From an uncultured Gammaproteobacteria bacterium (lineage in GTDB: Bacteria; Patescibacteriota; Microgenomatia; JALYQM01): a stretch of DNA of 64,000 nucleotides. Position 1 is the first letter of the stretch; every line of letters begins with the position of its first letter. This document shows positions 7,462 to 55,645 of this stretch, piece by piece. A program made the position numbers and the translations under genes. The notes under the pieces are model-generated. The model was given only the letters and a program-made list of their open reading frames with translations, was not told the origin of the DNA and did not search any database. The DNA lies in assembly GCA_964525495.1 (NCBI GenBank), contig CAZGHS010000001.1:102263-166262 (forward strand), read 5' to 3'.

Positions 7462-9275
7462 TATGCGGCTGGCGGAGTTTCAGGAGTAGCACTACGCGCT
7501 TTATTGGTTACACGATAGTGCATATACTTTCCAAGCATCAAACGAGTCTGTGCATCAAGCGCTGGCAACGTTCCATACGTCAAAATCATAAACGGCACCA
7601 ACAACCACTGCAAAAACACAAATACATGCTGGTACCATTTCCAACCCTTAGGTCGTGGAGGAATAATTTTCTCATGCATATAGACAGTCAAAAACAAACT
7701 CAAGAATGCCAATGTCAAAATATACGATGAGATTTTAGGAAGATTCTGAGCAGCAGTAGTCTTATCAAACTCAGGATTAAAAATAGGAATGATCATACCA
7801 CCAAATGTCACAATCAATGCCAAAGTCGCCCATGATCCATACGACCACAACACGAAAAATAATTTACCGGTCTTATCCATAAAAGGCGTTTCAGGAGAAC
7901 GAAAATACGACTTCACAATAAACGGAATATGTTCCACACCATAAGCCCAACGTCGAAACTGCAAATACTGATTCTGTAGTGTCTTCACAAGCGTCACGTC
8001 CTGCACGGCGTCAGCAGAAATAGGCAAAAAGTGCGGTATTACTTTATAGTCACCGTTAAAATGATAATACGCTTTCCAATAGAATCCCGAGTCATCGTTA
8101 ACTTTATCCGGCATCCACAAACCTAGTTCCCACATTGATTTAAAACTCATAGTCAAAGAAGCAAAGTTAATATATTTGTCGCTGAAAGCCATTTCAGACA
8201 ATTGCCAAAAAGCAGTTGATACGGCAATTACACGCATAGGTGCCGGTGTCGTCCAATAATTATTGTTGTATAAAAACGCACCAGTAAACGATCTCTTATC
8301 TCGTTCGTGCACAGGCAAAGATAAATACGAACAGGTCGCAGCTGCAATGAACTGTGGATGCACTACAAAATCCGCATCAAGTGTCGTAACCAAAACATCT
8401 TGCAATGAGATACCAAGTTTATCAAGTTCTGCCTTAGCATTTCGTAAGGCAGTGTTTCTATTTGTGGCCGGCCCTTGCAACTCACCTTCCTTCAAACGAT
8501 TCACCGATACAAAAAACCCACCAATCTTATCACCGTACTTCGCCACCAAATATTCTGCATTCTTCGGACCAATCTCCTTATCTTTCTCTTCTAATCCAAG
8601 AGCAATATAAATCTTTTCTTTAGGATAATTTAACTCTGAAATCGCCTTAATATTTGGCTCTAACACTTCCAAACTCTCTTTGTACGTTGGAATCGCAAAC
8701 ACATGATACAAACGATCTACATCCTCTGGAAATTCTTCTTCCAGCTTTTTTCTCCAGTCTATCTGCTCCGCAGCTCGCATCTTCCGATACCCTACCACAA
8801 CAAATATCGCGATGCGCATTGCCTTAAAAAACCAAAACACGTTAGCAGCAATCACCAAGTACACCAGCATCGTAGGCAAACGAAGCGCCAATAAAATAGG
8901 CGAAGCCAAAACCAAATAAGTTAAAAATCCAGGTAAAATCTCCAATCCTCGATTAATCTGACGATGATAACGATGAGCTACCGACAACTCACGATCCTGC
9001 GAAACCAAAAAGCCTTTATAAAGAACATGGTGCACCACAATAGATAAACCAAATCCATAAAAAGCTAAAGGTAATAATGAAGAGAAGATAGGGTTAGAAC
9101 CACCCTGACCAAATATGCTAAAAAACACACCCAGTACCAGGATCATAGCCCCAAGATACGAGTAACGATAATCCCTCACCCGATCCTTCATACGCTCAAA
9201 AAGTCGCCGTATAAACAAATCTGTCAGGAAAAACCCTACAAAGAAAGTAAAAGTAAATACAAAAATTCCAGCCAT
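7461..9275 (-). CDS. integral-membrane processive family-2 glycosyltransferase (cellulose/hyaluronan-synthase-like)
   Basis: 604 aa; N-terminal and C-terminal TM bundles; central GT-A domain with TLDADF (DXD) and LQFRRW (QxxRW motif of processive beta-glycan synthases). Confidence 0.7.
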   Translation of the reverse strand: MAGIFVFTFTFFVGFFLTDLFIRRLFERMKDRVRDYRYSYLGAMILVLGVFFSIFGQGGSNPIFSSLLPLAFYGFGLSIVVHHVLYKGFLVSQDRELSVAHRYHRQINRGLEILPGFLTYLVLASPILLALRLPTMLVYLVIAANVFWFFKAMRIAIFVVVGYRKMRAAEQIDWRKKLEEEFPEDVDRLYHVFAIPTYKESLEVLEPNIKAISELNYPKEKIYIALGLEEKDKEIGPKNAEYLVAKYGDKIGGFFVSVNRLKEGELQGPATNRNTALRNAKAELDKLGISLQDVLVTTLDADFVVHPQFIAAATCSYLSLPVHERDKRSFTGAFLYNNNYWTTPAPMRVIAVSTAFWQLSEMAFSDKYINFASLTMSFKSMWELGLWMPDKVNDDSGFYWKAYYHFNGDYKVIPHFLPISADAVQDVTLVKTLQNQYLQFRRWAYGVEHIPFIVKSYFRSPETPFMDKTGKLFFVLWSYGSWATLALIVTFGGMIIPIFNPEFDKTTAAQNLPKISSYILTLAFLSLFLTVYMHEKIIPPRPKGWKWYQHVFVFLQWLLVPFMILTYGTLPALDAQTRLMLGKYMHYRVTNKARSATPETPPAA

Positions 9276-9309: not shown

Positions 9310-10893
9310 TCACAATCCCAACCGATTACTCATCTCACTACCAGTCTCGAAAAGCTCAGGGTCGCTACCACCGTCTTGCTGAACCCGTAATACATTATCC
9401 GGATCTTCTAAATACGTCGCAATCTTATAGTCAGTACCATCCGAGCGGAAGAAATAACCAGCTACAACTTCTTCACCAGCACTATTAATCATAGTCTGAC
9501 CATTCAACGGATCAACAGGCAAAGTAGCCAAATAAGAACTCAAATCAAGCTTAATCCATCCCTTACCTTTTGCATCTCGCAAAGTTGCACTCTCCGTGGC
9601 AGCAATAGAAGAACACGCAGTATTAGTTTTGGCACCACGACATACTGGAAGGTTTACTATAGTCGTAGTAGCTATCGTAGCATCTATAGCCTTACGCAGC
9701 GTAACCAAATCAGTCAATCGAACTGAGTCCCGAGACTTTTTCATCAAACTCGATGAACTATCATTTTGCATAGTCTGCATATATTCTTGTGTTATCTCTT
9801 CGATAGTTTTGGCGTCGGTCGGAGCAGTAATATTCATAGGCATATTATAATTCTTGAATCGAGCTGAAATAGCTACCGATCCCGATTGTGCTGACATTTC
9901 TTTATCATCTATCCGAATAATCGTCTCAAACTTATACAAATAGTCATCTTTTTTATCCAACCACAGATGAAAATCTGTTTTCCCGATCAATGCCAAAGGC
10001 TCATCAAGTGTCTGTAATTCATATTCCGGAATAGCTGAATCAGTAATAATTGGATAAACCTCAGTCAAAAACTGCTTAAATACCACAGGATCAATCCGCA
10101 CAACATAATGCACTGCAGTCTTACCATCAATCACTTCATCAGGGTTACTCGTATCAAACTTCATAAACCTATGCTTCGCATAAATTAATTTAATAGTTTC
10201 CTGATTTTCCCTTAATTTCGCAGCGCCAGACGCATCACGCAGAGAACCAAAAGAACTTGTCGAAGGATTAGTCGCAACCCCCAACATACTATAATTAGAT
10301 GCCTCTTCCGGTATTGCAATCCATTTACCTTTAAACAAATCGAGCTGTGTCAAATCCATACCCAAGTTAGGTAATGAATTTAATTTCACATATACTTTTT
10401 TATCCTTCACAATTCCCTGACCATCAAACATATATTCTGGTTGATTAGGCACATTAATCCGAGCACCAAATGCCAATGCTGAAGCAGGGTTCGCTTTATC
10501 GTTCAAATCAGATTGGCCTCTCATCGTCAACTCATACCGCCCACCCTCACCTGCTGCCTGCAAAGGATCCACTGACAACATCTCAGAAAATATTCCCTTA
10601 TCTGAGACTTGTGTTTGCGAACTTGAAGAAGCATCCACACTTACTTTAATCTCTCCTTCATACTCGATAGACTTCATGTTCTCCAAATGAAGCAACGCAT
10701 TTTCAATTTTCTTCTCTGGCGAATTAACGAGATAAAAATATGCAGCTACACTTCCTACTCCCACCAAAACAAAAACAATAGCAACGATCACAGCTATCAA
10801 GCCTTTTTTAGAAGATTGTCGAGGCGGTTCCGGAGTATACGTAACCTGTGAATAAGTAGTGGACGGTGTTGGTTGTAATGATTCTGTATTCAT
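9310..10893 (-). CDS. secreted/anchored protein with C-terminal type-IV-pilin-like domain
   Basis: Start moved to Met at 10893 because an intrinsic terminator and a promoter lie inside the 5' extension of ORF 9310..11016; signal-anchor (LIAVIVAIVFVLVGVGSVAAYFYL); C-terminal RDSVRLTDLVTLRKAIDAT ... 2 Cys ... resembles the globular part of pseudopilins. Confidence 0.55.
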   Translation of the reverse strand: MNTESLQPTPSTTYSQVTYTPEPPRQSSKKGLIAVIVAIVFVLVGVGSVAAYFYLVNSPEKKIENALLHLENMKSIEYEGEIKVSVDASSSSQTQVSDKGIFSEMLSVDPLQAAGEGGRYELTMRGQSDLNDKANPASALAFGARINVPNQPEYMFDGQGIVKDKKVYVKLNSLPNLGMDLTQLDLFKGKWIAIPEEASNYSMLGVATNPSTSSFGSLRDASGAAKLRENQETIKLIYAKHRFMKFDTSNPDEVIDGKTAVHYVVRIDPVVFKQFLTEVYPIITDSAIPEYELQTLDEPLALIGKTDFHLWLDKKDDYLYKFETIIRIDDKEMSAQSGSVAISARFKNYNMPMNITAPTDAKTIEEITQEYMQTMQNDSSSSLMKKSRDSVRLTDLVTLRKAIDATIATTTIVNLPVCRGAKTNTACSSIAATESATLRDAKGKGWIKLDLSSYLATLPVDPLNGQTMINSAGEEVVAGYFFRSDGTDYKIATYLEDPDNVLRVQQDGGSDPELFETGSEMSNRLGL

Positions 10894-10902
10894 AGTAGCT
10901 CG

Positions 10903-10930
10903 ATAGTACATGCCTACAAAAAGCTGGTCA
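10903..10930 (-). promoter_or_regulatory. sigma70-like promoter (TTGACC-N16-TACTAT) immediately upstream of ATG 10893 (leaderless-type)
   Basis: -35 ttgacc (rc of 10925-10930), -10 tactat (rc of 10903-10908), only 9 nt to the start codon. Confidence 0.4.
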
Positions 10931-10936
10931 ACACCA

Positions 10937-10965
10937 TCAAAAAAAGGACGGCATCTCTGCCGTCC
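10937..10965 (-). terminator. rho-independent terminator of ppa
   Basis: 8-bp GC stem aggacggc/gccgtcct with 6-nt loop followed on the minus strand by T6-7. Confidence 0.65.
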
Positions 10966-10987
10966 TTTTAATATAATCAAATCTAAG

Positions 10988-11515
10988 CTACTTATTCGCC
11001 GCAATTCCTTTTGCAACTTCTTCCAAAGCCACGTCTACACCTTTCCAATCCCGAATCTTAATCCACTTACCAGGTTCAAGCTCTTTATAATGCTCAAAGA
11101 AATGCTTCATCTTGTTTCGCAAAGCTTCTGGAAGATCTTCCACATTCTTATACACACCAAACACTGGATCAATCTTAGCGGTAGGCACAGCTACCAGCTT
11201 CGTATCAACACCCTCTTCATCTTCCATCTCAAGCATTCCGATTATCACAGAAGGAATTACGACGCCTGGAGCAACAGTTTTATCTGACAGTACGAGCACA
11301 TCCAAAGGATCACCATCATCAGCCATCGTACCTGGTATAAAGCCATAATTAAACGGATACGCCATCGATGTATAAAGGAATCGGTCTACAAAAATGACCC
11401 CAGACTCCTTATCCAACTCATATTTAATCGATCCACCCTGCGGGATCTCAATAAACACATTAACGATTTTTTTCTCTTCCTTATTCCAAGGTTTAAGCGA
11501 AAGAACTCCAGACAT
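10988..11515 (-). CDS. ppa: inorganic pyrophosphatase
   Basis: 175 aa; family I PPase signature DGDPLDVLV and overall E. coli Ppa-like sequence. Confidence 0.9.
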
Positions 11516-19027: not shown

Positions 19028-20374
19028 ATGCCAGTGACAACATCAAGAGAATTCTCTAAACTAAGAGTAATGCAAAAAATTATTCTCACCACTGTTCCTA
19101 CGGGACTCGGCCATATTCGTGTCACCAAAGCTCTAGCGAAAGGTCTGCCTGCAAATATCAACCCGACCATACTCGGAGTCCAAGACGAAACTACAGCCAT
19201 GCTGTATCGCATCATCAGTACCAATTTTTATCTACGTTGGTTACTCGAGTTCACTCAGACCAATCCGATTGTTGAAAAAACTTCGACAAATATTCTCAAC
19301 TTCATCCAAACTTCAGATACAAAAAGTACTGAAATAATGCTCAGAGAATTTATCGGTGAGGATCCAGAGACTAAAATAATAATCGTCTCCACCCACGCCT
19401 TTATTGCCCAAAAAATTCAAAAGATAATAAACAGCAAAGTGATTCCAAACCCCATATTTCACGCAGTCATCATCACGGATGACTCGCCACAACGTTTCTG
19501 GATGGTCGACGCAGATATTATCTTTGCTCCCAGTCACTTCACTAAAAATACTCTAGAAAAACTTTACAAAAAAGATAACCGCAAGGCGCCCCTCATCAAA
19601 GTAAACCCATATCCCATCAATCCAGAGTTCTGCGAAAAGATCAGACCAGAAGTGCTCTACAACAAAATCGAACAGTTGCATCCAGAAAATCCACAAAAAG
19701 CTCGCATCTGCATCCCTGTCAGTGGAGCAGCGGTCCAATTGGATTATTACACCATCCTCATCGAAGAACTTCTCGCAGAAGATACCCGCAATCCGCACCG
19801 CGAGTTTACATTCTCAATAGTCACCAGAGAGGGAAACTACACACAACCGTTTATCAGTCATTTCCGTGAAGAGCTTGAGGTTTCATTCCATATCGGTGCT
19901 AACGACGAACAAACGGTCGAACTCTACGACCAGCTCTATCATCAACCAAACCCACCCGCGATCGAGATCACGAAACCATCAGAACAAGCGTTCAAAGCCC
20001 TCACTACTCCCGACACGGTCGGTGGACCGATACTGCTTCTTACCGACCCTGTCGGCCGACAAGAATACGATAATCTTAATTTCCTTGAGCGCCACAGTCT
20101 CATGCCTTCACCCCATGAACAATTAGAAATACTCGAAGCTTTCGCAACAGGCAACAAAGAAAAACTCGAAAATATGAGACAAATGGCACACACATGGCGC
20201 TGCTTACGCCTACCATCAGACCCCATCCAAGCATCACAATTCATAATAAAATGTTTTAAGCACGGAATATTTATAGCCATGCAAGACTACAGAAGATACA
20301 CCCACACCGACGAACTCGCACCCGACGGCGTCAAGCAGATATGGGAGACTGTATTACTTTCAAAACCGCTGTAG
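19028..20374 (+). CDS. hypothetical protein (possible GT-B-like glycosyltransferase)
   Basis: 448 aa (alternative start 19067 MQKIIL); N-terminal TTVPTGLGHIRVTKALAKGL resembles the G-rich loop of MurG/MGDG-synthase-type GT-B enzymes; weak. Confidence 0.4.
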   Translation: MPVTTSREFSKLRVMQKIILTTVPTGLGHIRVTKALAKGLPANINPTILGVQDETTAMLYRIISTNFYLRWLLEFTQTNPIVEKTSTNILNFIQTSDTKSTEIMLREFIGEDPETKIIIVSTHAFIAQKIQKIINSKVIPNPIFHAVIITDDSPQRFWMVDADIIFAPSHFTKNTLEKLYKKDNRKAPLIKVNPYPINPEFCEKIRPEVLYNKIEQLHPENPQKARICIPVSGAAVQLDYYTILIEELLAEDTRNPHREFTFSIVTREGNYTQPFISHFREELEVSFHIGANDEQTVELYDQLYHQPNPPAIEITKPSEQAFKALTTPDTVGGPILLLTDPVGRQEYDNLNFLERHSLMPSPHEQLEILEAFATGNKEKLENMRQMAHTWRCLRLPSDPIQASQFIIKCFKHGIFIAMQDYRRYTHTDELAPDGVKQIWETVLLSKPL

Positions 20375-29788: not shown

Positions 29789-29902
29789 AAATGCTCCTCC
29801 AGTAACAACATTTGTTATTATCATAATAACAAATTTGACGGCAAACTTGCAACAAGGGCTGTCGTATTGAACAATGTGAAGAAAAAACTTATAGTAGATA
29901 CA

Positions 29903-32900
29903 ATGAAGAAACATTGCCTAAAATACACACATGAACCAATCAAAAAAGTAACATTTGCACTAAAAAAAATCGCTAACTTTTTGTTTAAAAAACAGATGGT
30001 AATTTCCCGAATACGATTTAATTTGTTTGGTGCAGTAATGTTATCGATTGGAGCAATAATCGGCTCATATGTAACTGTTACAAAAATATTAATCCCATTT
30101 GCATTTGCTTCAGACTCTACACAATCCTGGAATTTTTCCACAAGTGGTGACTATACCCTCTCTGACACATCATTAGCCGAAGTAGCAGGATCTAGTGCAA
30201 AACTAAAAGTACAAAATTATTCTGATGCAGCAAACACTGCAGCTCTTTTTCACTTTGATGAGTCCTCCGGAAACCCCACTGATTCATCGAGCAACGCCAA
30301 CGCAGCAACAGCCAGCAATCTAACTTTTGCTACAGGAAACTTTAACAATGCGGCAGATTTTAACGGATCGACATCAAGCGTATCGGTTGCCGATTCAGCT
30401 TCACTTTCACTAAGCTCGTCAAATACTGTTGAGGCTTGGACAAAGTTTGATTCTTCTTTTTCGGCAGGCAGTCACTCACAGCGCCAAGGTGTAGTCGACA
30501 AAGGCCAATACCAACTTTACTACGACAATGAAACAGGTAAATTAACCTATGAATTAGCTAATTCATCTGCAACATCCTGGACCCAAGTAGCTGGAAATGA
30601 TGTCAATGGAAGCTGGGATCTCGATGGTCAGTTAGCAGCGCATGCAATGACTTCAGTTGGGACAGATTTGTATGTAGGGCTAGGAAATGCTACTGGTGAT
30701 GCTGAAGTCTGGCGCAGAAGTGGTTCGACTTGGACTAAGGTGGGTGGAGATGGACTTAACTCTGGCTGGGCGTCTTTGACTTTTGAAAGCGTGCTATCCC
30801 TGGCCAGCGATGGAACAGATGTCTATGCAGGTTTGGGTATAACTGCGGGTGACGCTGAGGTCTGGAAATATGATGTATCCGAAGGAACGTGGAGTAAAAT
30901 CGGTGGCGACGCAGTTAACTCATCTTGGGCGGTTAATACATATGAAGGTGTGTACTCACTCGTCTGGCAAGGATCGACCCTCTATGCTGGGCTTGGACTA
31001 ACTGCTAACGATGCAGAAGTGTGGTCGTGGAATGGTAGTGCTTGGACCAAGATTGGTGGCGACAGCACCAACTCTGGTTGGACTACTAATTTTGAATATG
31101 CTTACAGTATGGTGCACGATGGCACATACTTATACGCAGCTTTGGGCGCGACGGCTGGAGATGCTGAAATCTGGAGATGGAATGGAACTGCTTGGACACG
31201 AATCGGCGGAGACGCAATTAATTCTAGTTGGGCAGATGCGACGTATGAATTTGGACTAAGTATGACGTATGTTGGAGGCATCCTGTACGCTGGACTGGGG
31301 ACGACGGCTAACGAGGCAGAAGTGTGGTCATGGAATGGTTCTGCTTGGACACAGGTCGGTGGAGATAGTTTGAACTCTGGCTGGACTACTAATTATGAAG
31401 GTGTCTACACGCTTAAGAATGACGGTACAGATGTGTACGCTGGTTTGGGTGCTTCTGGAGGAGACAATGAGGTATGGAAACTCACTGTAGGGACCACTAC
31501 TTGGAGCAAAATTGGTGGAGATGGCACAAACTCCAGCTTTACCAGTACTACTCATACTATCGTTGACACCATGCATTTTATTGGCACGACTCTGTATGCA
31601 GGTATTACCTCAGGAAATGCTGGGCGCACCGGCGAAGTATGGAGCTTTGCCAGCGGCAGTTGGACGCAAATTGGCGGTGACTATATCAATTCGAGCTGGG
31701 GATTTAGAGGATTGCAGGCTGCTAATGTCATGACAGTTTCTGGTTCTTATTTGTATGCAGGTACTGGTACAACTGGCAGTGCTGGTAACGCCTTAGTTTG
31801 GAGATATGATGGAAGTACTTGGACCTTGATTGGAGGACAAGGCATAAATAGCAGCTGGACAGCCAATACGTACGAGGATGTGCTCTCAATGATCAGTCAT
31901 AATGGCACACTGTATGTTGGTCTTGGCTCTTCGGCTAATGAAGCTGAAGTATGGTCGTGGAACGGTAGTGCTTGGACACAAATTGGCGGCGATAATTTGA
32001 ATTCCGGATGGACGACTAACTATGAAGAAGTAAATACATTGGCGACCGATGGAACCTATCTGTATGCTGGACTTGGATTGAGTGCCAATGATGCTGAAGT
32101 CTGGCGTTGGAATGGTACTATATGGGGGAAAATTGGTGGAGATAGTACAAACTCTGGATGGACTACTGGCTTTGACCGAATTACATCAATGGCCATGTAT
32201 GCGGGTCAGTTATATGTTGGACTTGGTTTGACCGCAGGAGAAGCAGAAGTCTGGACTTGGAATGGATCTATTTGGGCGAAGATCGGCGGAGATACGGTGG
32301 GTTCCAGCTGGGATTCAAGCAATTTTGAGCATGTCGACAGCATGATCCCTCTGAATGGTGTGCTGTATGCTGGTCTTGGAACTGGCACGGGAGATGCTGA
32401 GGTTTGGTCATACAATGGAAGTACCTGGACTCAGATTGGTGGAGATGATTTAAATTCTGGATGGACATCGGGAACTTACGAGCGCGTCAGAACTCTTGTT
32501 GCTTACAACGGCGATCTCTACGCAGGCATTGGAAACGGCACCGGTGAAGGTGAGGTCTGGAGATACCGAAGTGGAACTTGGTCTCAGATTGGTGGAGACA
32601 GCTTAAACTCAGGATGGGATAACATTGTTGAAGAAGTTCAGAGTTTTAGTGTGTATCAAGGAAAACTGTACGCAGGATTGGGCAATACACAAAATGTTGA
32701 TGCAGCAATCTGGTCCTATGGGAATAATGCGTACATGCAATCAAGCACCGCTTCTCAAAATACAAGCTGGCACCATGTTGCAGCTACTTATAACGGATCG
32801 ACCATGAAAATCTTTATTGACGGAGTTCAAGACAACTCGACAAGTGCCTCAGTCACCATTCCGGACACTGCGCATAGTTTGCTGCTTGGCACTACCTATG

Positions 32901-35821
32901 CCAGCCGAGAATCCGGTAAGGCACAAGGCTATTTCCAAGGACTGATTGATGAACTTCGCCTTTCTGACACAGCACGAACTACATTTACGACTTCTCCTTA
33001 TACTGCAGCAGCTCAAACTGTCCAACCAACGGCCGCAGTTTTTACTTCAGGAGTTGAAAACTTTGATGACTTTACCGTGTCAGAAACTACCAATGGTGGA
33101 TCAATAAATTATAGATTATCCATTGATGGCGGCACTACTTGGAAATATTATAGTGGAGGTACTTGGACAACATCAGCTTCAACGGCGCAAGTAAATGATG
33201 CAAGCACCATCGATACAAATATTAGTACACTGACTGCAGGCTCAGGAGGTATTCTGTGGCAAGCGGTACTAGATGGTGATGGCACGCAACAAGTTACGCT
33301 CAATAGCGTTTCAATTGGCGCAGTGCATGACTCTACTGTTCCCGTTGCACCTGATACATTAACGTCTTTATCTGCATTAGCCGGTTCAGCCATTACTACA
33401 AATACATGGTATACGCATAGTGGTCCTTATTTCTCATGGAGTGGCGCGACCGACACTGACGGCTCTGGTATTTGGGGATATTATGTTTATTTTGGCACTG
33501 ACAATACAGCAGATCCACAAACAGCAGGAAATTTTCAAGTTGCATCAACATTTACTGCATCAAGTTTATCCAGCGGATCTACCTATTATTTGAGAATCCG
33601 AGCTCGTGATAATGCACAGAATGTGAGCTCTATCTGGTCTGCCTTCACATACAAGTTTGATAGCACTGCTCCAACAAATCCTGCATCGATTACGATAAGT
33701 CCTGCCGGATACTCGGCAACTAATGATTTTACCTTTTCTTGGCCAGCAGGAACTGACGGTTCGTCTGGAATTGCAGGCTATCAATACAAAACTGCAACTG
33801 CGTCAGGATCGCTATCTGACTGGTCGTCAACGACAGCATCAACCAGCATTAATATTCCGAATGCTGCATATCAAACTGATGCAAATACTTTTTATCTAAG
33901 AACGATTGATACTTCGGGTAATATTAGCTCCGAAACTACTGCAACCTACTACTTTGGCGGCGAAGGTCCTTCTCTACCTCAGTTCTTAGCGGTTACACCC
34001 TCTTCAAGTACCACTAACTCATTTGCATTCTCCTGGGATCCTCCTATTACCTTCTCTGGGGATGAAGATGAATTAACCTATTGTTATACAGTCAATACCT
34101 TGCCGACACTTAACTCGTGTACATTTACCAGCGAAGGCGCGACATCACTTTCTGCAAGTTCGTTTGCTACTCAAGTCGGACTTAATACATTTTACTTGGT
34201 GGCAAAAAACCCTGCAACGGCAGGCGGCTCTATTAACTATGGCTCCTATACAAGCGTTACCTTTACTGCCGATACCTCGGCACCTGGAATTCCACAGAAT
34301 CTAGATATTGGAGATATCTCAATTAAAAGTTCTGAAACATGGCGACTAGCGCTATCTTGGAATGCACCTAGCGATACAGGATCAGGTATTTCAAGTTACA
34401 AAATACATAGATCGACAGATGATTCAACCTATTCTTTAATCTCCTCGACAACAGGCCTGTCTTACGTAGATACTGACTTAGAGGAAGAAGAATATTATTA
34501 TAAGATTAAAGCCTGCGATAGCGTTGATAACTGTGGCGCGTTTTCAAGTTCAGTCTCATTGGTACCAACTGGCAAGTATACCGAAGCTGCTGGATTATCT
34601 TCTGGTCCAACGGTTTCAGCTATTACTACCAAGAAAGCGGTGATAAGTTGGGTCACAGATCGCGATTCTGACTCAAAAATTGCATATGGTACAACCTCAG
34701 GATCATACTTCACTTCTGAACCATCAAATTCAACTCAAACAGACGATCACTCAATTACTTTATCTGAACTAACTCCTGGAACAACCTACTACTACAAAGC
34801 TAAATGGACAGACGAAGACGGTAATACAGGAATATCCTCCGAAAAAACATTCGCTACTGACTCAGCACCAACAGTAACTGATCCCAAACTAAAGCGAGCA
34901 GGTTTGACCGACGTAGACTTAGAGTTTAAATTGAAAGGCTCATCAAAAGTGAAAGTGTACTATGGAATCACAACTGCGTTTGGAGGTGTAAAGGAATTAG
35001 CTACCTCTACGTCAGAATCCACCTACACCTTGAATATTGATACTCTTCTATATGGTACTAAGTATTTTTATAAGATTAACGGATTTGATAACGAAGATAA
35101 TGAATACGAAGGAAGTACATTAAGTTTTGAAACACTTCCCCGCCCTAAGATTGCAAATGTACGTATTCAAGAAGTCCGGGGAACCGCCCAAACGACTGCG
35201 CTAATTACCTGGACTACCAATACTGAAACATCCTCAATAGTTACCTATTATCCAAGTGATGATGCAGGCGCCGCTCGAGACGAAGTTAATGTCACCCTAG
35301 TGAAGCAACACCGAGTGGTATTGCGTAATCTGCTACCAAAGCGCGACTATAGCCTAGTAGTAAAAGGACGAGATAAATCTGGAAACGAAGCTGCATCCGA
35401 ACCTCAAAAATTCACAACAGCAACAGATACTCGCCCACCACAGATCCAAGATATGCGCGTCGAAGGCAGCACTCAAGCAGTTCGTGGTGGAAGCTCTCAA
35501 GAACAAACTGCACAATTAGTTGTATCATGGAATACGGATGAGAATTCAACCTCACAGGTCGAGTTCGGTGAAGGCACGGGTACCACATATAGCCAGAAAT
35601 CTCAGGAAGATACGAACCTTACTACAAATCACGTTATAGTTATATCTGGGCTAACTCCATCACGTGTCTATCATCTTCGTGCCCTATCTAAAGACTCAGT
35701 GGGAAATGCGGGAAGCTCCGTTGATACAGTTACTATTACACCAAAGGCGTCAGACAGTGCACTAGATCTAGTTATAACAAATTTACAAGGAATCTTTGGA
35801 TTTATTAATGCACCAAGGTAA
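29903..35821 (+). CDS. giant cell-surface protein: N-terminal signal-anchor, LamG-like domain interrupted by about 13.5 W/G-rich 52-aa repeats, then multiple fibronectin-III-like domains
   Basis: ORF 29531..35821 trimmed to first Met downstream of the divergent SOD gene (alt. start 29996); TM LFGAVMLSIGAIIGSYVTV; LamG_3-like halves (LFHFDESSG...TVEAW and SWHHVAATYNGSTMKIFIDG...GLIDELRLS) flank the repeat array; FN3/PKD-like modules with SW...G...Y.Y motifs in the C-terminal 900 aa. Confidence 0.85.
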   Translation: MKKHCLKYTHEPIKKVTFALKKIANFLFKKQMVISRIRFNLFGAVMLSIGAIIGSYVTVTKILIPFAFASDSTQSWNFSTSGDYTLSDTSLAEVAGSSAKLKVQNYSDAANTAALFHFDESSGNPTDSSSNANAATASNLTFATGNFNNAADFNGSTSSVSVADSASLSLSSSNTVEAWTKFDSSFSAGSHSQRQGVVDKGQYQLYYDNETGKLTYELANSSATSWTQVAGNDVNGSWDLDGQLAAHAMTSVGTDLYVGLGNATGDAEVWRRSGSTWTKVGGDGLNSGWASLTFESVLSLASDGTDVYAGLGITAGDAEVWKYDVSEGTWSKIGGDAVNSSWAVNTYEGVYSLVWQGSTLYAGLGLTANDAEVWSWNGSAWTKIGGDSTNSGWTTNFEYAYSMVHDGTYLYAALGATAGDAEIWRWNGTAWTRIGGDAINSSWADATYEFGLSMTYVGGILYAGLGTTANEAEVWSWNGSAWTQVGGDSLNSGWTTNYEGVYTLKNDGTDVYAGLGASGGDNEVWKLTVGTTTWSKIGGDGTNSSFTSTTHTIVDTMHFIGTTLYAGITSGNAGRTGEVWSFASGSWTQIGGDYINSSWGFRGLQAANVMTVSGSYLYAGTGTTGSAGNALVWRYDGSTWTLIGGQGINSSWTANTYEDVLSMISHNGTLYVGLGSSANEAEVWSWNGSAWTQIGGDNLNSGWTTNYEEVNTLATDGTYLYAGLGLSANDAEVWRWNGTIWGKIGGDSTNSGWTTGFDRITSMAMYAGQLYVGLGLTAGEAEVWTWNGSIWAKIGGDTVGSSWDSSNFEHVDSMIPLNGVLYAGLGTGTGDAEVWSYNGSTWTQIGGDDLNSGWTSGTYERVRTLVAYNGDLYAGIGNGTGEGEVWRYRSGTWSQIGGDSLNSGWDNIVEEVQSFSVYQGKLYAGLGNTQNVDAAIWSYGNNAYMQSSTASQNTSWHHVAATYNGSTMKIFIDGVQDNSTSASVTIPDTAHSLLLGTTYASRESGKAQGYFQGLIDELRLSDTARTTFTTSPYTAAAQTVQPTAAVFTSGVENFDDFTVSETTNGGSINYRLSIDGGTTWKYYSGGTWTTSASTAQVNDASTIDTNISTLTAGSGGILWQAVLDGDGTQQVTLNSVSIGAVHDSTVPVAPDTLTSLSALAGSAITTNTWYTHSGPYFSWSGATDTDGSGIWGYYVYFGTDNTADPQTAGNFQVASTFTASSLSSGSTYYLRIRARDNAQNVSSIWSAFTYKFDSTAPTNPASITISPAGYSATNDFTFSWPAGTDGSSGIAGYQYKTATASGSLSDWSSTTASTSINIPNAAYQTDANTFYLRTIDTSGNISSETTATYYFGGEGPSLPQFLAVTPSSSTTNSFAFSWDPPITFSGDEDELTYCYTVNTLPTLNSCTFTSEGATSLSASSFATQVGLNTFYLVAKNPATAGGSINYGSYTSVTFTADTSAPGIPQNLDIGDISIKSSETWRLALSWNAPSDTGSGISSYKIHRSTDDSTYSLISSTTGLSYVDTDLEEEEYYYKIKACDSVDNCGAFSSSVSLVPTGKYTEAAGLSSGPTVSAITTKKAVISWVTDRDSDSKIAYGTTSGSYFTSEPSNSTQTDDHSITLSELTPGTTYYYKAKWTDEDGNTGISSEKTFATDSAPTVTDPKLKRAGLTDVDLEFKLKGSSKVKVYYGITTAFGGVKELATSTSESTYTLNIDTLLYGTKYFYKINGFDNEDNEYEGSTLSFETLPRPKIANVRIQEVRGTAQTTALITWTTNTETSSIVTYYPSDDAGAARDEVNVTLVKQHRVVLRNLLPKRDYSLVVKGRDKSGNEAASEPQKFTTATDTRPPQIQDMRVEGSTQAVRGGSSQEQTAQLVVSWNTDENSTSQVEFGEGTGTTYSQKSQEDTNLTTNHVIVISGLTPSRVYHLRALSKDSVGNAGSSVDTVTITPKASDSALDLVITNLQGIFGFINAPR
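30640..32720 (+). repeat. in-frame tandem repeat array, 156-bp period, about 13.5 copies (consensus ...LYAGLGxTAxDAEVWSWNGSAWTxIGGDxxNSGWTTNYExVxS...DGT)
   Basis: visible at DNA and protein level; several copies nearly identical (e.g. around 31010, 31320, 31945). Confidence 0.8.
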
Positions 35822-35832
35822 TTAAAAATTGT

Positions 35833-36609
35833 ATGGATAGTATCATTCAGGTATCACATATTGCGAAATCGTTTCACCTTGGAGTACAGGAGCTTCCTGT
35901 CCTAAAAGATATATCTTTCGAAGTAGAGCGTGGAGATTTTACGCTTATTCTCGGACCCTCAGGTTGTGGAAAATCTACATTGCTCCATACAATTTTAGGA
36001 CTAGAACCACCTTCAACTGGCGATGTGTTCATACTAGGTACAAATCTATATCAAGAACACCCCACAGAAGACGACCGATCTATATTTCGTAAAAAACATA
36101 TTGGAATGGTCTATCAGCAACCAAACTGGATTAAATCATTAAACGTCATGGAAAACGTAGCGTTCCCGTTAGCTCTTGTTGGCATGAATAAAATTGAAAG
36201 CGCTAAAAAAGCATGGGAATTACTGAGTATAGTAGGTATGCAAAATTGGTTAAACCATAAACCAACCGAACTATCTGGAGGACAACAACAACGTGTGGCA
36301 CTTGCCCGCGCCCTGATTAATGACGCCGAGATTATTATTGCAGACGAACCTACAGGTAATCTTGATTACGAATCTGGTCAGCATCTCATGACCATGCTGG
36401 CAGATTTATCAAAAAAAGGAAAAACAATTATCATGGTTACCCACGATCTTGAATACACCAAATTTGCACGAAGCGCAGTCCGTATGTTAGACGGCAAGGT
36501 TGTAGACGTAGTCAGTGGCGATGCGAAATTGAAGTTAGACAGCGAAGTACACGGTAAAAGAGGAACAGATACTCTAGAACCCGTTAAGAAAATCGAGGTG
36601 TCAGGATGA
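35833..36609 (+). CDS. ABC transporter ATP-binding protein (MacB/LolD/FtsE-type)
   Basis: 258 aa; Walker [10 protein letters not shown], signature [15 protein letters not shown], Walker [13 protein letters not shown]; starts 12 nt after giant-protein stop. Confidence 0.9.
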
Positions 36610-38642
36610 GAATTCTATCATTTCTAAAAAAAACAGGACTCATTGTTCTTAACCTTTTGACGTTTCAGTTTCTTCTAGCAGCGTATCTCCTAAATTCATT
36701 GCTTGTCGTAAACATTCTCCGTATGCCATTCCTACCCAAAAAACTTATTGCTCTAATCGAGCGAATTATCGGTCGGTCATACGATCAAGCAATTAAATTG
36801 TTTGACCGACCAGGTAAGGGAACCATTATGCGCTCTGATTTAATTGAATTAGCAATTCGCAACATGCGTTCAAAAATTACTCGCTCCATTATTACAATAA
36901 GCGGCATGTCGATCGGAATTGGTGCAATAGTTTTTCTAGTATCAATAGGATATGGGATTCAAAACTTGGTAACTACACGCGTTGCACGTCTTGATGAAAT
37001 GCAGCAAGCAGATATCGTTCCACAACCAGGTGGAAAAGTCCAAATTAATGACAAAACCATCTCTGATCTCGAAGCATTACCTAATACAAAACTTGTTCTC
37101 CCACAAATATCAGCCGTAGGAAAAATAACTTTTAATAATGCTGTTTCAGATATGGCAGTCTATGGGGTAACCGCTAGCTATCTCAAACAATCAGCAGTAC
37201 AACCAGTTGAAGGTAAGATATTTGAAAGCAACGATCTAGTTTCTGCGGTATCAACGTTGCCAGACAACAAAGATATAAAAGAATCAAGCGCAAGTGGAGT
37301 TCTCGGAGATTCAATACGAAAAGTCTCGTTTCAAGTATATCCAGATGTATGGGTAAAAATCCGCGAAAAACCAACAAGCACATCACGAATACTTGGCTAT
37401 GCTCGAAGATCAGAGGAAATAACTTACGGCAGTGAGGTCTGGGGCGATTATTACCCTGACGACACATCTCCTAATACAGATGATAATGGAAACAAACTAA
37501 GTAGATGGATATCCGCTGAAATAGAGATCTGGGACAACAAAGCCTGCAGTGATACTGAAACTGGATGTGTTGATGGAAAATATTTAAAACGGGTTGATAC
37601 AGATGGCTTTGGAAAACGCGTTGCAGGATACGTTGCATCCACTTTTTTAGCAGTTTCAGAACCGAATCCAGATGATCCTGCTGTTTTAGGTGTGACCTTT
37701 TCTGAAGTACTTGCCGAGTCTACTGGATCAGGTAGTCTCACGGAAACGCAAGAATCAACGGCATCCGGAGATGCTGCCATCATGGCTCAATTAGCATCAG
37801 AATCTGGAATACTATCAGAAAAACCAGTTAAAAAGATTGCTCTTTCATCTTCTTCGGTAAAAGAAGCCGTTGTTAATTATGCAATGTTAAAAGTCCTAGG
37901 ACTAAAGGAATCCGAAGCAGTAGGTAAAACATTTGACGCATCTTTTGTCTTAACAGGCAACCAGCTTGACGGTAAAGATGATAAGGCAGAATCAGTGCCC
38001 GCTCCCTATAAAATAGTCGGTGTTATCCCTGATGATAAAACGCCATACTTCTACGTACCATTCGTAGATCTTCGTAATCTAGGTGTAATCAATTATTCAC
38101 AGATAAAACTTGTTGCTAAAACTCAGGAAGATCTTCCTAAGCTACGCAAACAAATAGAAGGGTTGGGATATGGTACGCAATCGGTCGTGGATACAGTTGC
38201 CCAGATTAACAGTATATTCGGTACAGCACGAACTATTTTAGCGTTACTTGGAATGGTTGCACTTTCAATTGCGTCGCTTGGCATGTTTAATACATTAACC
38301 GTATCTCTCCTTGAACGTACACGAGAAGTTGGACTCATGAAAGCAATGGGAATGAGATCATCCGAAGTTCGAGAACTATTTCTTACGGAATCAATGATGA
38401 TGGGTATTTTTGGAGGATTATTTGGACTATTAACTGGCTATGTTGCAGGTGAAGGTTTAGGAGTTATTTTGAGTCTTATAGGATTATCAAAAGGAGCAGG
38501 ATATCTAGATATTGCCTATATCCCTCCATTCTTTATAACAATAATTGTTGTGCTCTCACTAGTAGTAGGAATTGCAACAGGAATTTACCCTGCACGTCGA
38601 GCTACAAAAATATCTGCGCTAAACGCATTACGATACGAATAA
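36606..38642 (+). CDS. ABC transporter permease, MacB/FtsX-like with large extracytoplasmic domain
   Basis: 678 aa; ATGA start/stop overlap with ATPase gene; MacB-type N-terminus (LIELAIRNMRSKITRSIITISGMSIGIGAIV), about 400-aa periplasmic insert, C-terminal FtsX 3-TM module; possible extra N-terminal TM if 36606 start is real (alt. start 36831). Confidence 0.85.
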   Translation: MRILSFLKKTGLIVLNLLTFQFLLAAYLLNSLLVVNILRMPFLPKKLIALIERIIGRSYDQAIKLFDRPGKGTIMRSDLIELAIRNMRSKITRSIITISGMSIGIGAIVFLVSIGYGIQNLVTTRVARLDEMQQADIVPQPGGKVQINDKTISDLEALPNTKLVLPQISAVGKITFNNAVSDMAVYGVTASYLKQSAVQPVEGKIFESNDLVSAVSTLPDNKDIKESSASGVLGDSIRKVSFQVYPDVWVKIREKPTSTSRILGYARRSEEITYGSEVWGDYYPDDTSPNTDDNGNKLSRWISAEIEIWDNKACSDTETGCVDGKYLKRVDTDGFGKRVAGYVASTFLAVSEPNPDDPAVLGVTFSEVLAESTGSGSLTETQESTASGDAAIMAQLASESGILSEKPVKKIALSSSSVKEAVVNYAMLKVLGLKESEAVGKTFDASFVLTGNQLDGKDDKAESVPAPYKIVGVIPDDKTPYFYVPFVDLRNLGVINYSQIKLVAKTQEDLPKLRKQIEGLGYGTQSVVDTVAQINSIFGTARTILALLGMVALSIASLGMFNTLTVSLLERTREVGLMKAMGMRSSEVRELFLTESMMMGIFGGLFGLLTGYVAGEGLGVILSLIGLSKGAGYLDIAYIPPFFITIIVVLSLVVGIATGIYPARRATKISALNALRYE

Positions 38643-38644
38643 GA

Positions 38645-40042
38645 CTAACCGACGCTGCCTTCCATGTCCATTTGAATCAACCGATTCATTTCAACAGCAT
38701 ATTCCATTGGGAGTTCTCGCAAAATAGGCTCAACAAAACCCTGAACAATCATCGCAGCAGCTTGGTCACCAGATAATCCACGAGACATTAAATAAAACAA
38801 TTGCTCTTCACCAAGTTTTCCAACACTCGCCTCATGTCCGATTGTTACATCCTGCTCATCAATATGCATCGTCGGATACGTATCCGAAATAGAATGATCA
38901 TCCAAAACCAACGCATCACACTTCACGGTCGACTTCACATTCTTACAATTTTTATTCACCTTCAAAAGTCCACGATACGTTGTACGTCCACCATCCTTAC
39001 AAATAGATTTAGAAGTTATTAACGATGTAGTATTTGACGCCAAATGCACAGCCTTTGCGCCAGCATCTTGATGTTGTCCTTTACCAGCAAAAGCTAAAGA
39101 CAATACTTCACCGCGAGCACCTTCTTCTTTCAAATACACGCTTGGATACTTCATAGTCAATTTTGAACCTAAGTTTCCATCAATCCACTCCATAGTCGCG
39201 TCTCGATACACAAACGCGCGTTTTGTGACCAAGTTATACACATTCTGTGACCAATTCTGAATTGTCGTATACCGCACACGTGAACCAGCTAAACAGACAA
39301 TCTCAACCACTGCAGAGTGCAAAGAATTAGTCGTGTAAATTGGAGCGCTACATCCTTCAACATAATGCACAAACGATCCCTCATCAGCAATAATCAATGT
39401 TCTTTCAAACTGTCCTGCGTTCGCTGCGTTAATTCGGAAATATGCCTGCAAAGGAATATCTACATGTACACCTTTGGGCACATAGATAAACGAACCACCA
39501 CTCCACACTGCAGTATTCAACGCCGCAAATTTATTATCTCCAGGGGGAATAATCGTGCCAAAATATTTCTGAACAATTTCAGGATATTCTTTAACTGCGG
39601 TATCTGTGTCAGTAAATATGACGCCCTTATCTTCCCACTGCCCCTTCAAATTATGATAGACGACCTCTGAGTCATATTGTGATGAAACACCCGCTAGAAA
39701 CTTTTTCTCGGCCTCTGGGATACCAATCTTATCAAAGGTCCGTTTAATATCGTCCGGCACATCTTCCCATTTGCGTTCTGTCTTATCCGAAGCGCGCAAG
39801 AAGTAATGAATGTCTTGAAAATCTATTCCAGACAGTTCTCCACCCCACGAAGGCATTTTCTTATTCAAAAAAATCTCGTAGGCTTTCAACCGTATCTGCA
39901 ACATCCAGTCAGGTTCGTTCTTATACTTGGAAATCGCTTCCACTACTTCGCGCGACAAACCCTTCGGCAACTTCACTGAATAATTCTCATCACTCTCAAA
40001 AAAACCGTATTGATATTGTCCGACTGGATTTTGATTACTCAT
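38645..40042 (-). CDS. sufB: Fe-S cluster assembly protein SufB
   Basis: 465 aa; full-length SufB layout including C-terminal [23 protein letters not shown]. Confidence 0.9.
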
Positions 40043-40742
40043 TATTAACCACCTTAATACGCCGCTTGGGAACTTTTTGTAAAGAAACGGACATATTTTT
40101 TACTTCATTAGTATGTGGTAATAGCAAATATTCTGATAAATTTACTAATTCACCTGATTCATCCTGAAATCCCGTAGTTGATTCACTATAACCATGTTCA
40201 AACACCTCCACGCGCGTTGGCAAAAATGCTAAATCTCTCCCCTGAGGAATCCAGATATTACCTGTCAAATCCGACTCACCAGTGGACGCGGCATTGCCAA
40301 GTAGTCTACGTGGAATATTAGAAAACTCAACCTTCATCAAAAAATAAGCTGGATTAAGCGTAACTTCTCTAGTGCGAAGATCAGCTTCCATAATTGATCT
40401 AAATCCAAGCGGCGCGTAAGGAGCAATCTCTGTAGCCCTTTCATCAAAGGATGAAAAATACCGTGCTAGGAACAATGATGGAAGAGGTGCAACAGTTAAT
40501 CGAAGATCACCAACACTTTTAGGACCGTTACCATATTGAAATGGAATATCTACTCTATACATTAATTCAGGATCAACTGGATATTGGTTATCTACGGCAT
40601 CAATAAACGTAGAAGCCACACGTCTCAATTGATTCCATTTTGATGGAGGCATCGCGTAAAGTGGGTACGCCTGTCCTTCTGGAAAATCTAACCGCATTGA
40701 GATATCAAAACTATCTTTATGTATCAAAACATTTTCGCTCAT
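40035..40742 (-). CDS. hypothetical protein embedded in suf operon (divergent SufD-like?)
   Basis: 235 aa; 4-nt overlaps with both neighbours; no clear SufBD C-terminal motif, so SufD identity is unproven. Confidence 0.45.
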
Positions 40743-54313: not shown

Positions 54314-55645
54314 TTATTCTGCCCTTCCCTCTAAACACACAAACGACTGATCCATTTGCACGCCACACGATGGAAGAACAATCACACGAGTTAACTCGGT
54401 AGGTTTCCATCCGCCTTTCAAATGTGCCTCCACAAACTCGGCAGGAGTAGCTTCATACATCGTATACCAATCAAACCATGCCCTCAAAACTTCTTGTCCC
54501 GTATAGGAATGACCGTCCATATTAGATAATCTCGCAATATTTGCGTTACAATATGGAGCACCTGGCTTAAGATATTGTCTAATTGCTCCGGCATAATCTG
54601 CTTTAGATACAGAATTACGCACAAAGTTATGAGCATCGTCCACCCCACCATCAAAATAATCCGCCAAACCAACGGTTGTACAAATATCTAAACGGGTTTC
54701 AGGTGTTAATAATGGATGTCGTCCACTCATAAATGGGTCGTGTGGGTTTCCTAAATTAGCATAAACCGGCTCAATGTATTCCGAAACACCGTATTGTGCA
54801 GCAAGTGCGGCAATATATTGTAAACCGCCCTCACTAACATCAAGAGCAAACAGTTTAAGTGGAATCTTTGTTTCGCCTTGCTTATTTAATCCATCACCAA
54901 ATTTCTCACGCCACTCAGGATGCGCTTCAAATACTTTTTCTACAGCCTGAATAGCATACCGAAAGCTTCCTGCTGCAAAATCAGCGCCAAGTACTGCTTC
55001 TTGGGATTCTGAATTCAATCGAGTCTGTAATATTTCAGTTAAATGCTCTATATAAAAATTTTCAAAATGCCTAGCACGCTCTCCCACACCAACTGCAACT
55101 TCCCAAGTATCAAATACAGCAACTTCATCTCCAATTTGAATATCGCGCAGACTCAACTGTTCACCCATACGAGTACGGCGCATTGGCTTTCCTTGAGGAT
55201 GATAATCCAGCCAATCAAATTTGCCTTCACCTCTTGCACCATCAATCCCAGTGCGAGCAGCATTTTTCCGTAATGCTTGAGCTCCAGTAATAATCGCTTC
55301 CATCACTTCCCACGAACTTTTATGGCTAGCTATCCATGCAAGCAAAGGATACCGCTGAAATACTTCTTGTCTATCAAGCCGACCACCCATCAACTCATCC
55401 GAAATCCGAGATATCTCGTGTGAGGCATCAGTATTACGAGCATAATTTGTATCTGGACTCGCAAGTGAATAATCAATGACAGTTGGAACAACTACGACCC
55501 CGTATTCCTGACTGTTAACAACAATTGGAGGCAATTCCTGAAACCTAAACTCTGACAATCTGCGCAAAGGGAAATCAAGAATCCTAGCTTGATTTTGTTC
55601 AGGTTCAACTAATCGTAATGATGTTTCATTCGCACGTAATTCCAT
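54314..55645 (-). CDS. hypothetical protein (443 aa), unknown family
   Basis: long ORF with normal composition; preceded by a promoter and an SD-sequestering hairpin leader (see below). Confidence 0.6.
   Translation of the reverse strand: MELRANETSLRLVEPEQNQARILDFPLRRLSEFRFQELPPIVVNSQEYGVVVVPTVIDYSLASPDTNYARNTDASHEISRISDELMGGRLDRQEVFQRYPLLAWIASHKSSWEVMEAIITGAQALRKNAARTGIDGARGEGKFDWLDYHPQGKPMRRTRMGEQLSLRDIQIGDEVAVFDTWEVAVGVGERARHFENFYIEHLTEILQTRLNSESQEAVLGADFAAGSFRYAIQAVEKVFEAHPEWREKFGDGLNKQGETKIPLKLFALDVSEGGLQYIAALAAQYGVSEYIEPVYANLGNPHDPFMSGRHPLLTPETRLDICTTVGLADYFDGGVDDAHNFVRNSVSKADYAGAIRQYLKPGAPYCNANIARLSNMDGHSYTGQEVLRAWFDWYTMYEATPAEFVEAHLKGGWKPTELTRVIVLPSCGVQMDQSFVCLEGRAE

Follow-up and report, generated by a model that had tools for sequence, protein, structure and literature searches.

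A giant LamG/double-propeller protein encoded with a MacB-type ABC pair: a probable ATP-controlled attachment module of Patescibacteria

The type VII ATP-binding cassette (ABC) systems, among them MacAB-TolC, LolCDE, FtsEX with EnvC, PcsB or RipC, YtrEF and Spr0694/0695, are mechanotransmitters, and for MacB, LolCDE and FtsEX it is established that they work by movement of an extracytoplasmic domain rather than by transport across the bilayer. Here we describe a three-gene unit that encodes a giant adhesin-like protein, an ABC ATPase and a MacB_PCD/FtsX permease, found in a 64,000-nt stretch (hereafter the window) of contig CAZGHS010000001.1 (GCA_964525495.1, positions 102,263 to 166,262, forward strand) from an uncultured bacterium titled Gammaproteobacteria and placed by GTDB in Patescibacteriota. 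Shared with the type VII systems are a separate nucleotide-binding domain (NBD) with intact motifs, a four-helix FtsX-type membrane domain with a MacB_PCD extracytoplasmic domain between transmembrane helices (TM) 1 and 2, and an extracytoplasmic partner protein from the same operon. Unlike in those systems, the window encodes as partner a head-and-stalk protein of 1,972 aa in place of an adaptor, a lipoprotein or a hydrolase activator, and the permease carries an extra N-terminal helix, an all-beta insert of ~115 aa with a conserved Cys pair and a disordered linker.

The second comparison is with the giant repeats-in-toxin (RTX) adhesins (LapA/LapBCE, MpIBP), which have, as does the window protein, a very long repetitive stalk with binding modules, a dedicated ABC system alongside, and a binding domain nested in a split beta-sandwich companion domain. 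They differ from it in bearing a C-terminal type I secretion system (T1SS) signal instead of an N-terminal Sec-type one and an HlyB-like instead of a MacB-like ABC system, and the organisms carrying the window's module are presumed monoderm. The window protein is not a T1SS RTX adhesin, having no RTX or HlyB-type matches, a MacB-type ABC partner and an N-terminal signal. According to PMC13059738, which cites Graham et al. 2024, the nesting of binding domains in split companion domains is a described giant-adhesin design, and large surface proteins of Patescibacteria with FN3, ConA or integrin-like domains are proposed there, generically, as host-interaction candidates.

In the window the giant, ATPase and permease genes lie in tandem on the + strand and are flanked by two − strand genes, superoxide dismutase upstream and SufB downstream. 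Analysis of the open reading frames (ORFs) bore out the arrangement and junctions described in an earlier reading made from the letters of this DNA (the sequence-only reading), with small corrections of size: the giant protein has 1,972 and not 1,970 aa, and the spacer between its gene and the ABC ATG (35833) is 11 and not 12 nt, while the ATGA overlap of the ABC stop with the permease start (36606–36609) stands. The permease stop is at 38640–38642, and the convergent SufB gene ends at 38645, three bases beyond the permease end. No terminator-like site was found on the + strand between the three genes, and this, together with the ATGA overlap and the isolation of the unit between − strand genes, speaks for the three products being partners.

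A forward survey that took one genome per species with the LamG/propeller junction of the giant protein (described below) gave 164 relatives, of which 80 loci were fetched and 62 were evaluable, i.e. had at least 6 kb downstream. In 62/62 of these species-representative loci, genes for the ABC ATPase and an FtsX-type permease lay directly downstream on the same strand, with the ATPase start 2.7–3.3 kb past the LamG C-terminal half; among 18 loci in which the contig ended early, the ATPase was already visible in 7. The spacer between the giant and the ABC gene had a median of 12 nt across loci, and the gene order was the same in two independent look-ups. Conversely, with the permease as query, 80 metagenomic loci were collected, and the ATPase was present in 60/61 of those with at least 1 kb upstream and a giant protein with the FN3 stalk and C-terminal tail stood ahead in 48/48 of those with at least 2.5 kb upstream. 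The linkage is thus essentially invariant in both directions, with the giant protein as a conserved companion of the ABC pair, and the outcome that the sequence-only reading had named as fatal to its view, that homologous transporters are never linked to such proteins, was not what we found. The homologues are almost all from Patescibacteria, and with hundreds of loci recovered the module is fairly widespread among environmental members of this group. JGI names some homologues 'ABC-type antimicrobial peptide transport system permease', as would be expected if the pair were a generic antimicrobial-peptide or efflux system that is an unrelated neighbour of a large surface protein; but the 62/62 and 48/48 synteny over many Patescibacteria lineages, the short spacers and the class-matched tails (below) come close to refuting this explanation, which we regard as highly improbable.

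The ATPase matched ABC_tran in Pfam (E 2.8e-35) and has every motif of a cognate NBD of the MacB superfamily, with Walker A, the LSGGQ signature and the H-switch (THD) located by script and a Walker B-like IIIADE read from the translation. Its top NCBIfam models were LolD and FtsE, with every equivalog cut-off missed (204 bits versus 307.75 for LolD, 193 bits versus 264.85 for FtsE). The permease scored above the Pfam cut-offs for both FtsX (PF02687, 63.2 bits) and MacB_PCD (PF12704, 64.8 bits), and has an extra N-terminal helix (aa 10–38), TM1 (aa 91–126), an extracytoplasmic domain of ~400 aa (aa ~127–526) and TM2–4 (aa 527–668), so that the FtsX-type C-terminal membrane domain and the MacB_PCD between TM1 and TM2 that define the MacB superfamily are both present. 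None of the equivalog models takes it in: that of MacB gave 175 and 61.6 bits against a cut-off of 966 bits, the FtsX models gave 26–34 bits against 225–255, and lolCE gave 56 bits against 362. Nor is it a MacAB-TolC system, since the NBD is a separate gene and no membrane-fusion-protein (MFP)/HlyD or TolC-like gene was found in or beside the unit. When an AlphaFold2 (AF2) model of the permease (mean predicted local distance difference test, pLDDT, 75.8) was searched with Foldseek, MacB (5gko), LolE (9rld_E), LolCDE, YtrEF and Spr0694/5 matched at E ~1e-16; HrtBA, YbbAP and BceAB were also among the matches, and FtsEX structures matched in the membrane part only, at E ~1e-4. On these models and profiles, the ABC pair is a MacB-type (type VII) complex and not FtsEX; of the 'MacB/FtsX-like' permease in the sequence-only reading the first half survives, with likeness to LolCE and YtrF added, and the second does not.

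The all-beta insert in the extracytoplasmic domain has an invariant Trp, Gly and Tyr and two invariant Cys, is followed by a disordered linker (aa 353–404), and is missing from a short class of permease homologues (~410 aa); a profile of it had no match among PDB sequences. An SH3-like identity was an impression from sequence only and is not claimed. The first 40 residues of the permease (36606–36725) contain a conserved extra hydrophobic helix with an invariant F20, ahead of the usual MacB elbow helix and TM1, and the NCBI gene call for an identical permease (P0121, 639 aa) begins downstream of this helix.

The giant protein has a single hydrophobic segment by hydropathy, within the N-terminal signal-anchor region that the sequence-only reading had proposed, and none at its C-terminus. 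In homologues, small-x-small residues are found at this N-terminus, followed by a conserved D..xxW(D/N)F..xxDY motif. Searched whole against Pfam, the protein shows its LamG domain only as a C-terminal half. Searched alone, this half matches Laminin_G_3 (PF13385) at positions 72–146 of 151 (E 3.8e-16, 60 bits), and the N-terminal half alone gives no match. After the repeats between them were deleted in silico (aa 70–222 joined to aa 946–1045), the hidden Markov model was matched over positions 1–146 of 151 in one stretch (E 1.7e-21; 77.4 bits versus a gathering cut-off of 27.6). Therefore one LamG is split by an insertion, as had been proposed, and the halves are not two degenerate domains. 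An AF2 model of the head (aa 67–1059, from an alignment of 31 homologues) was confident, with a mean pLDDT of 87.7 and a predicted template modelling score (pTM) of 0.86, and the LamG halves in it reached pLDDT ~73–96; from these scores and the fold matches we infer that the halves pack into one jelly-roll. The junction between the last half-blade of the insert and the LamG C-terminal half is strongly conserved among homologues. A search of PDB sequences with the head gave only a weak LamG-like match, pappalysin-2, and the homologues of the head, in metagenome-assembled genomes (MAGs) of Saccharibacteria, WWE3, CPR2, Moranbacteria, Berkelbacteria and Kaiserbacteria, are named only 'LamG domain-containing protein'. 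The domain thus belongs to the Laminin_G_3/concanavalin A-like lectins, scoring above the cut-off with the insert removed, and is unlike them in being interrupted by 721 residues.

The insert is a repeat array, as had been noted, but one of 14 blades and not of 13.5 units: 13 full units of 50–53 aa, with an invariant Y..G..W..W..GG..S pattern and pairwise identities of 42–70%, and a half unit at each end. Tandem Repeats Finder detected no tandem repeat at the DNA level in the blade region, so the blades appear old and diverged, without recent expansion. The best Foldseek PDB matches of the head were double 7-bladed propellers (Elp2, the GH74 enzyme OXG-RCBH, Utp and AIP1-type proteins), and each half of the insert superposed on 7-bladed propellers (integrin alpha, HTCS sensor domains, the BP39L lectin), with seven four-stranded blades closing a ring. 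In the model, the insert is accordingly a tandem pair of ordinary 7-bladed propellers. The fold is the same as in the FG-GAP, Kelch and 'two-component regulator' propellers, and the blade sequence lies outside all Pfam repeat models, the nearest falling below their cut-offs (Rax2 E 0.048, Kelch_6 E 0.13, Kelch_4 E 0.63, Kelch_1 E 1.4); no family was assigned by Pfam, NCBIfam or PHROG. At sequence level, the sequence-only reading was therefore right that the repeat has no named family. Distant sequence relatives are annotated as FG-GAP_2, Rax2, DUF5122 or Kelch. At E ≤ 1e-3, a profile of the window's blades matched only 1,667 cluster representatives out of 1.84 billion, with blade counts that peak at 7–8 and 14–15, and the distance between the LamG halves across genome loci had a median of 2,164 nt (range 1,649–2,494 nt, ~11–16 blades).

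Behind the head, Pfam found fn3 (three matches), Pur_ac_phosph_N (three matches), Ig_Rha78A_N and FN3_DSCAM in the C-terminal part, which agrees with the FN3-like modules read there before, and the stalk has 220 homologues in Patescibacteria. The protein ends in a conserved tail that starts with ITPKASDSALDLVITNLQGIFGF, is amphipathic and not a TM segment, and had gone unmentioned in the sequence-only reading. It is conserved in 74 genome loci and also in metagenomic loci with other heads, and its class (ITPK... versus IIGR...) pairs with the permease class in 65/65 loci, a pattern that fits contact between tail and permease and also simple co-inheritance. Most loci encode one giant protein of ~2,040–2,080 aa; in two genomes (L001:8001-14011 and L002:8001-13881) head and FN3 stalk are encoded by separate, overlapping ORFs, which could reflect a genuine gene split, a frameshift or a sequencing error.

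The hydrophobic or amphipathic elements at both ends of the giant protein also bear on the main rival to a standing partnership, in which the ABC pair would act like LolCDE and pull the N-terminal or C-terminal membrane element of the protein from the bilayer, the protein being a one-time substrate that then passes to the wall or S-layer or is released in the direction of the host. The permease has LolCDE chains among its top structural matches, LolD is the top-scoring NCBIfam model for the ATPase, and strict synteny fits such an extraction equally well; but the LolD, LolC and LolE equivalog cut-offs are far from reached, the signal region has no lipobox cysteine close to the predicted cleavage site, no LolA/LolB-like acceptor is encoded nearby, and the class-specific pairing of tail and permease is not obviously explained by a substrate used once. 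We consider this rival possible, though on the unlikely side.

The head is the exchangeable part of the module. LamG/propeller heads were seen in combination with either permease class, in 17 cases with the long class to which the window's permease belongs and in 45 with the short one. Giant proteins ahead of a long-class permease in turn bear at least three kinds of head: among 28 such loci with enough upstream DNA, the LamG/propeller type accounts for 4, a C-type-lectin or FGE-sulfatase-like type for 10, and the remaining 14 belong to neither type. Whatever its head, the protein retains its N-terminal signal region, FN3 stalk and C-terminal tail, so that exchange affects the head and leaves stalk, tail and ABC base unchanged.

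Some of these sister modules recall the surface proteins of the candidate phyla radiation (CPR) that are diversified by diversity-generating retroelements (DGRs), in that they combine the same stalk, tail and ABC base with a C-type-lectin-like head and a pair of template repeat (TR) and variable region (VR). In one of them, on a Shapirobacteria-type metagenome contig (L084:2215-9231, the same contig as L148), a lectin-type head with a verified VR was identified: the TR of 116 nt (2622-2737) lies between Avd and the reverse transcriptase (RT), the VR is at 5583-5698, and the two mismatch only at template adenines. This DGR sits directly upstream of the sister module, and its VR falls in the N-terminal head (aa ~408–446 of 1,623), unlike the usual C-terminal site of DGR variable regions. 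RT or Avd was found in 16/28 long-permease loci, and DGRs in 0/4 metagenomic loci with a LamG-type head; the window has no RT or Avd homologue and no TR near the giant gene, whose protein is hence not a DGR target. The blade repeat has relatives in phages as well. A phage host-specificity protein (P0062, L165:10001-12925; Phage-tail_3/phrog_4271), encoded inside a siphovirus-like tail module, carries 7–8 distal blades that are ~45–50% identical to those of the window, P0059 and other PF13550 proteins likewise carry the repeat, and it is rare in viral contigs (6 loci). The window's repeat is thereby shared with phage receptor-binding proteins.

Genes of a type IV secretion system (T4SS) follow the module in 11/38 related metagenomic loci (among L085-L164), in part of the long-permease family, and none was found in the window. 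In the Shapirobacteria-type locus a T4SS-like cluster (TrbC, TrbL, a VirB4-like ATPase and Peptidase_M23) comes directly after the module (L084:12205-17971), with Replic_Relax and DUF2958 upstream, a sign that some copies of the module may travel on conjugative elements. The downstream T4SS genes could also be cited for an adaptor-like role, in which the ABC pair would export a small molecule, peptide or toxin that the giant protein guides to a bound target, or in which the head would capture polysaccharide in the manner of GH74-like double propellers. In the macA-macB and yknX-yknYZ operons a periplasmic adaptor gene occupies the position taken here by the giant gene, so that the order extracytoplasmic partner, ATPase, permease mirrors MacAB-type operons, and the best Foldseek matches of the head include a GH74 double propeller. 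Yet neither an HlyD nor another membrane-fusion-protein domain was found in the giant protein, FN3 rods are not known to form channels, no gene for an exported peptide lies within the unit, and the GH74 likeness is at fold level only (13% identity, TM-score ~0.25), which makes this role quite improbable in our view.

The alternative that we prefer is a standing partnership, in which the ABC complex would hold or act on the giant protein and ATP turnover would control its anchoring, deployment or release; by analogy with the type VII systems, we give it about an even chance of being correct. The three gene products would then build one surface apparatus typical of Patescibacteria. The giant protein would be exported by Sec through its N-terminal signal or anchor and be laid out as a ligand-binding head, a ~30-nm rod of about eight FN3-like modules and a C-terminal amphipathic helix, with the double 7-bladed propeller projecting from the LamG lectin-type jelly-roll of the head. 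ATPase and permease would assemble into a type VII ABC complex which, instead of moving the giant protein across the membrane, acts on it by ATP-driven movement of the large extracytoplasmic domain. In the version we favour, the C-terminal helix would be the base element, held by the permease or beside it and presumably in physical contact with it, the head would face away from the cell, and ATP turnover would set or reset the attachment or release it; this orientation requires signal cleavage at the conserved small-x-small site (AFA/SD in the window) and a tail held at the membrane. The head is read as a binding device because a lectin-type jelly-roll and a double propeller come together in it, because a phage uses the repeat in host recognition and because a lectin in the same place hypermutates in sister modules; what it binds would be the surface of another cell, and ATP hydrolysis would influence that attachment.

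Several points weigh against this picture. That the giant protein touches the permease at all is something that we infer, shared ancestry confounds the matching of tail and permease classes, of which there are only two clades, and an amphipathic C-terminal helix could anchor in the membrane unaided, as certain penicillin-binding proteins do. The cytoplasmic extension at the N-terminus is itself conserved, being His/Arg/Trp-rich in the short-permease clade, and hints at an uncleaved signal-anchor, with which the head would be near the membrane and the tail far from it, the opposite of the preferred topology. Surface location and expression of the giant protein are predictions from its sequence. 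The annotation table of Southlakia, a cultured Saccharibacteria model with transposon-sequencing (Tn-seq) data, contains neither Laminin_G_3 (PF13385) nor Pur_ac_phosph_N (PF16656); Southlakia probably lacks the module.

In the short-permease clade (L009-L045 and others), that extension amounts to 40–60 aa before the membrane helix (HHHxAxRPHxxL...W(Y/H)xxWHxWxxHxHVH), with a conservation that is unusually high for the n-region of a signal peptide. Two essential envelope proteins of Southlakia, SEML1_0890 and SEML1_0891, were considered as homologues and rejected as small unrelated proteins.

The components of the module, LamG, the 7-bladed propeller, FN3 and a type VII ABC pair, are all of known kinds. 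The searchable literature, the coverage of which is incomplete, yielded no description of the three-gene module, of its strict linkage to a MacB-type ABC pair, of the C-terminal tail, of the LamG::double-propeller head or of DGR-targeted sister heads; such a pairing of a giant adhesin-like protein with its own type VII ABC system may still have been described before. The nested architecture was not known to the sequence-only reading as a described family; nesting in a split companion domain is known from giant adhesins.

The features of the locus are collected in Table 1.

Table 1. Features of the three-gene unit, in window positions (aa numbers refer to the respective protein)
Feature	Positions	Strand	Basis
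Divergent intergenic region, superoxide dismutase gene/giant gene	29789..29902	.	Between opposite gene starts
Giant surface protein gene (predicted location), 1,972 aa	29903..35821	+	ORF, ATG at 29903, stop 35819-35821
Basic cytoplasmic N-terminal stretch and single hydrophobic helix (aa 39-69), ends AFA/SD	29903..30109	+	Hydropathy
LamG (Laminin_G_3) jelly-roll, N-terminal half, aa ~84-222	30152..30568	+	Chimera HMM match, AF2 strands
Insert of 721 aa (aa 223-943), 14 blades, modelled as two 7-bladed beta-propellers	30569..32731	+	Repeat alignment, AF2, fold matches, conserved insert length
LamG jelly-roll, C-terminal half, aa 944-1030	32732..32992	+	Laminin_G_3 match, conserved blade/LamG junction
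Stalk: one beta-sandwich and about eight FN3-like modules, aa ~1045-1944	33035..35734	+	Pfam, manual parse, homologues
C-terminal amphipathic tail, ITPKASDSALDLVITNLQGIFGFINAPR	35735..35818	+	Conservation, hydropathy
ABC ATPase, 258 aa, LolD/FtsE/MacB-NBD type, own gene	35833..36609	+	ORF, Pfam, NCBIfam, motifs
MacB-type (type VII ABC) permease, 678 aa	36606..38642	+	ORF, Pfam, NCBIfam, AF2, Foldseek, hydropathy
All-beta insert in permease extracytoplasmic domain, aa 236-351	37311..37658	+	AF2, alignment

An alternative in-frame start at 29531 gives a longer giant ORF, but it runs into the divergent superoxide dismutase gene (− strand, likely start 29788); because of this overlap, and because homologues share an N-terminal extension of ~35 aa, 29903 is a plausible start. 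A sigma-70-like match upstream of the giant gene (29867–29895) scores at chance level in shuffles, and an Rfam search of the whole window gave no match. Over nearly the whole window, most of whose genes lie on the − strand, GC skew is negative; it becomes positive or neutral only across the + strand operon (30001–38000), and the GC content rises to 0.45–0.46 across the head region of the giant gene. Five sizeable ORFs (235–604 aa) elsewhere in the window are without a Pfam match at the thresholds used (7461–9275, 9310–11016, 19028–20374, 40035–40742 and 54314–55645).

A dozen module-bearing MAG records are titled Gammaproteobacteria, Bdellovibrionales, Pseudomonadales or Bacillota (L014, L023, L024, L032, L042, L046, L050, L059, L062, L067, L070 and L078); these titles may be wrong, as the gene content around the module resembles that of Patescibacteria loci. 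In the 'Bdellovibrionales' set the insert is longer, at ~16 blades, and the tail is of a distinct kind, ending in ...SLRSILGQ. An apparent propeller–FtsX fusion (P0048, L003:7235-10283), which would have been a 'Rosetta stone' for the partnership, was rejected as most likely a deletion or an assembly chimera: its last blade is joined straight to permease TM2 (KLYAGLG/MFNT...) at a short AGLG/ALG microhomology, the LamG C-terminal half, stalk, ATPase and extracytoplasmic domain are missing, and the upstream N-terminal fragment is frameshifted.

How ultrasmall episymbiotic bacteria recognize and hold on to their host cells is, to our knowledge, largely unknown beyond type IV pili. Strict conservation, an exchangeable head that is hypermutated in some lineages and a repeat held in common with phage tail proteins are what would be expected of a host-range determinant, and the module would add a giant surface protein to the known partners of the type VII ABC mechanotransmitters. 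In its most far-reaching form, which we think unlikely to hold in full, the proposal is of a lineage-specific, ATP-powered attachment organelle of Patescibacteria, in which a MacB-type 'motor' in the membrane holds the C-terminal base of a ~30-nm FN3 stalk and, by mechanotransmission, deploys, tensions or releases an exchangeable head, thereby setting the host range of the episymbiont. If true, this organelle would be a cellular counterpart of phage receptor-binding proteins, with a LamG/double propeller, a DGR-hypermutated lectin or another domain as its head. The module points, in our view, to a cell-attachment device of Patescibacteria that is undescribed and probably under ATP control.

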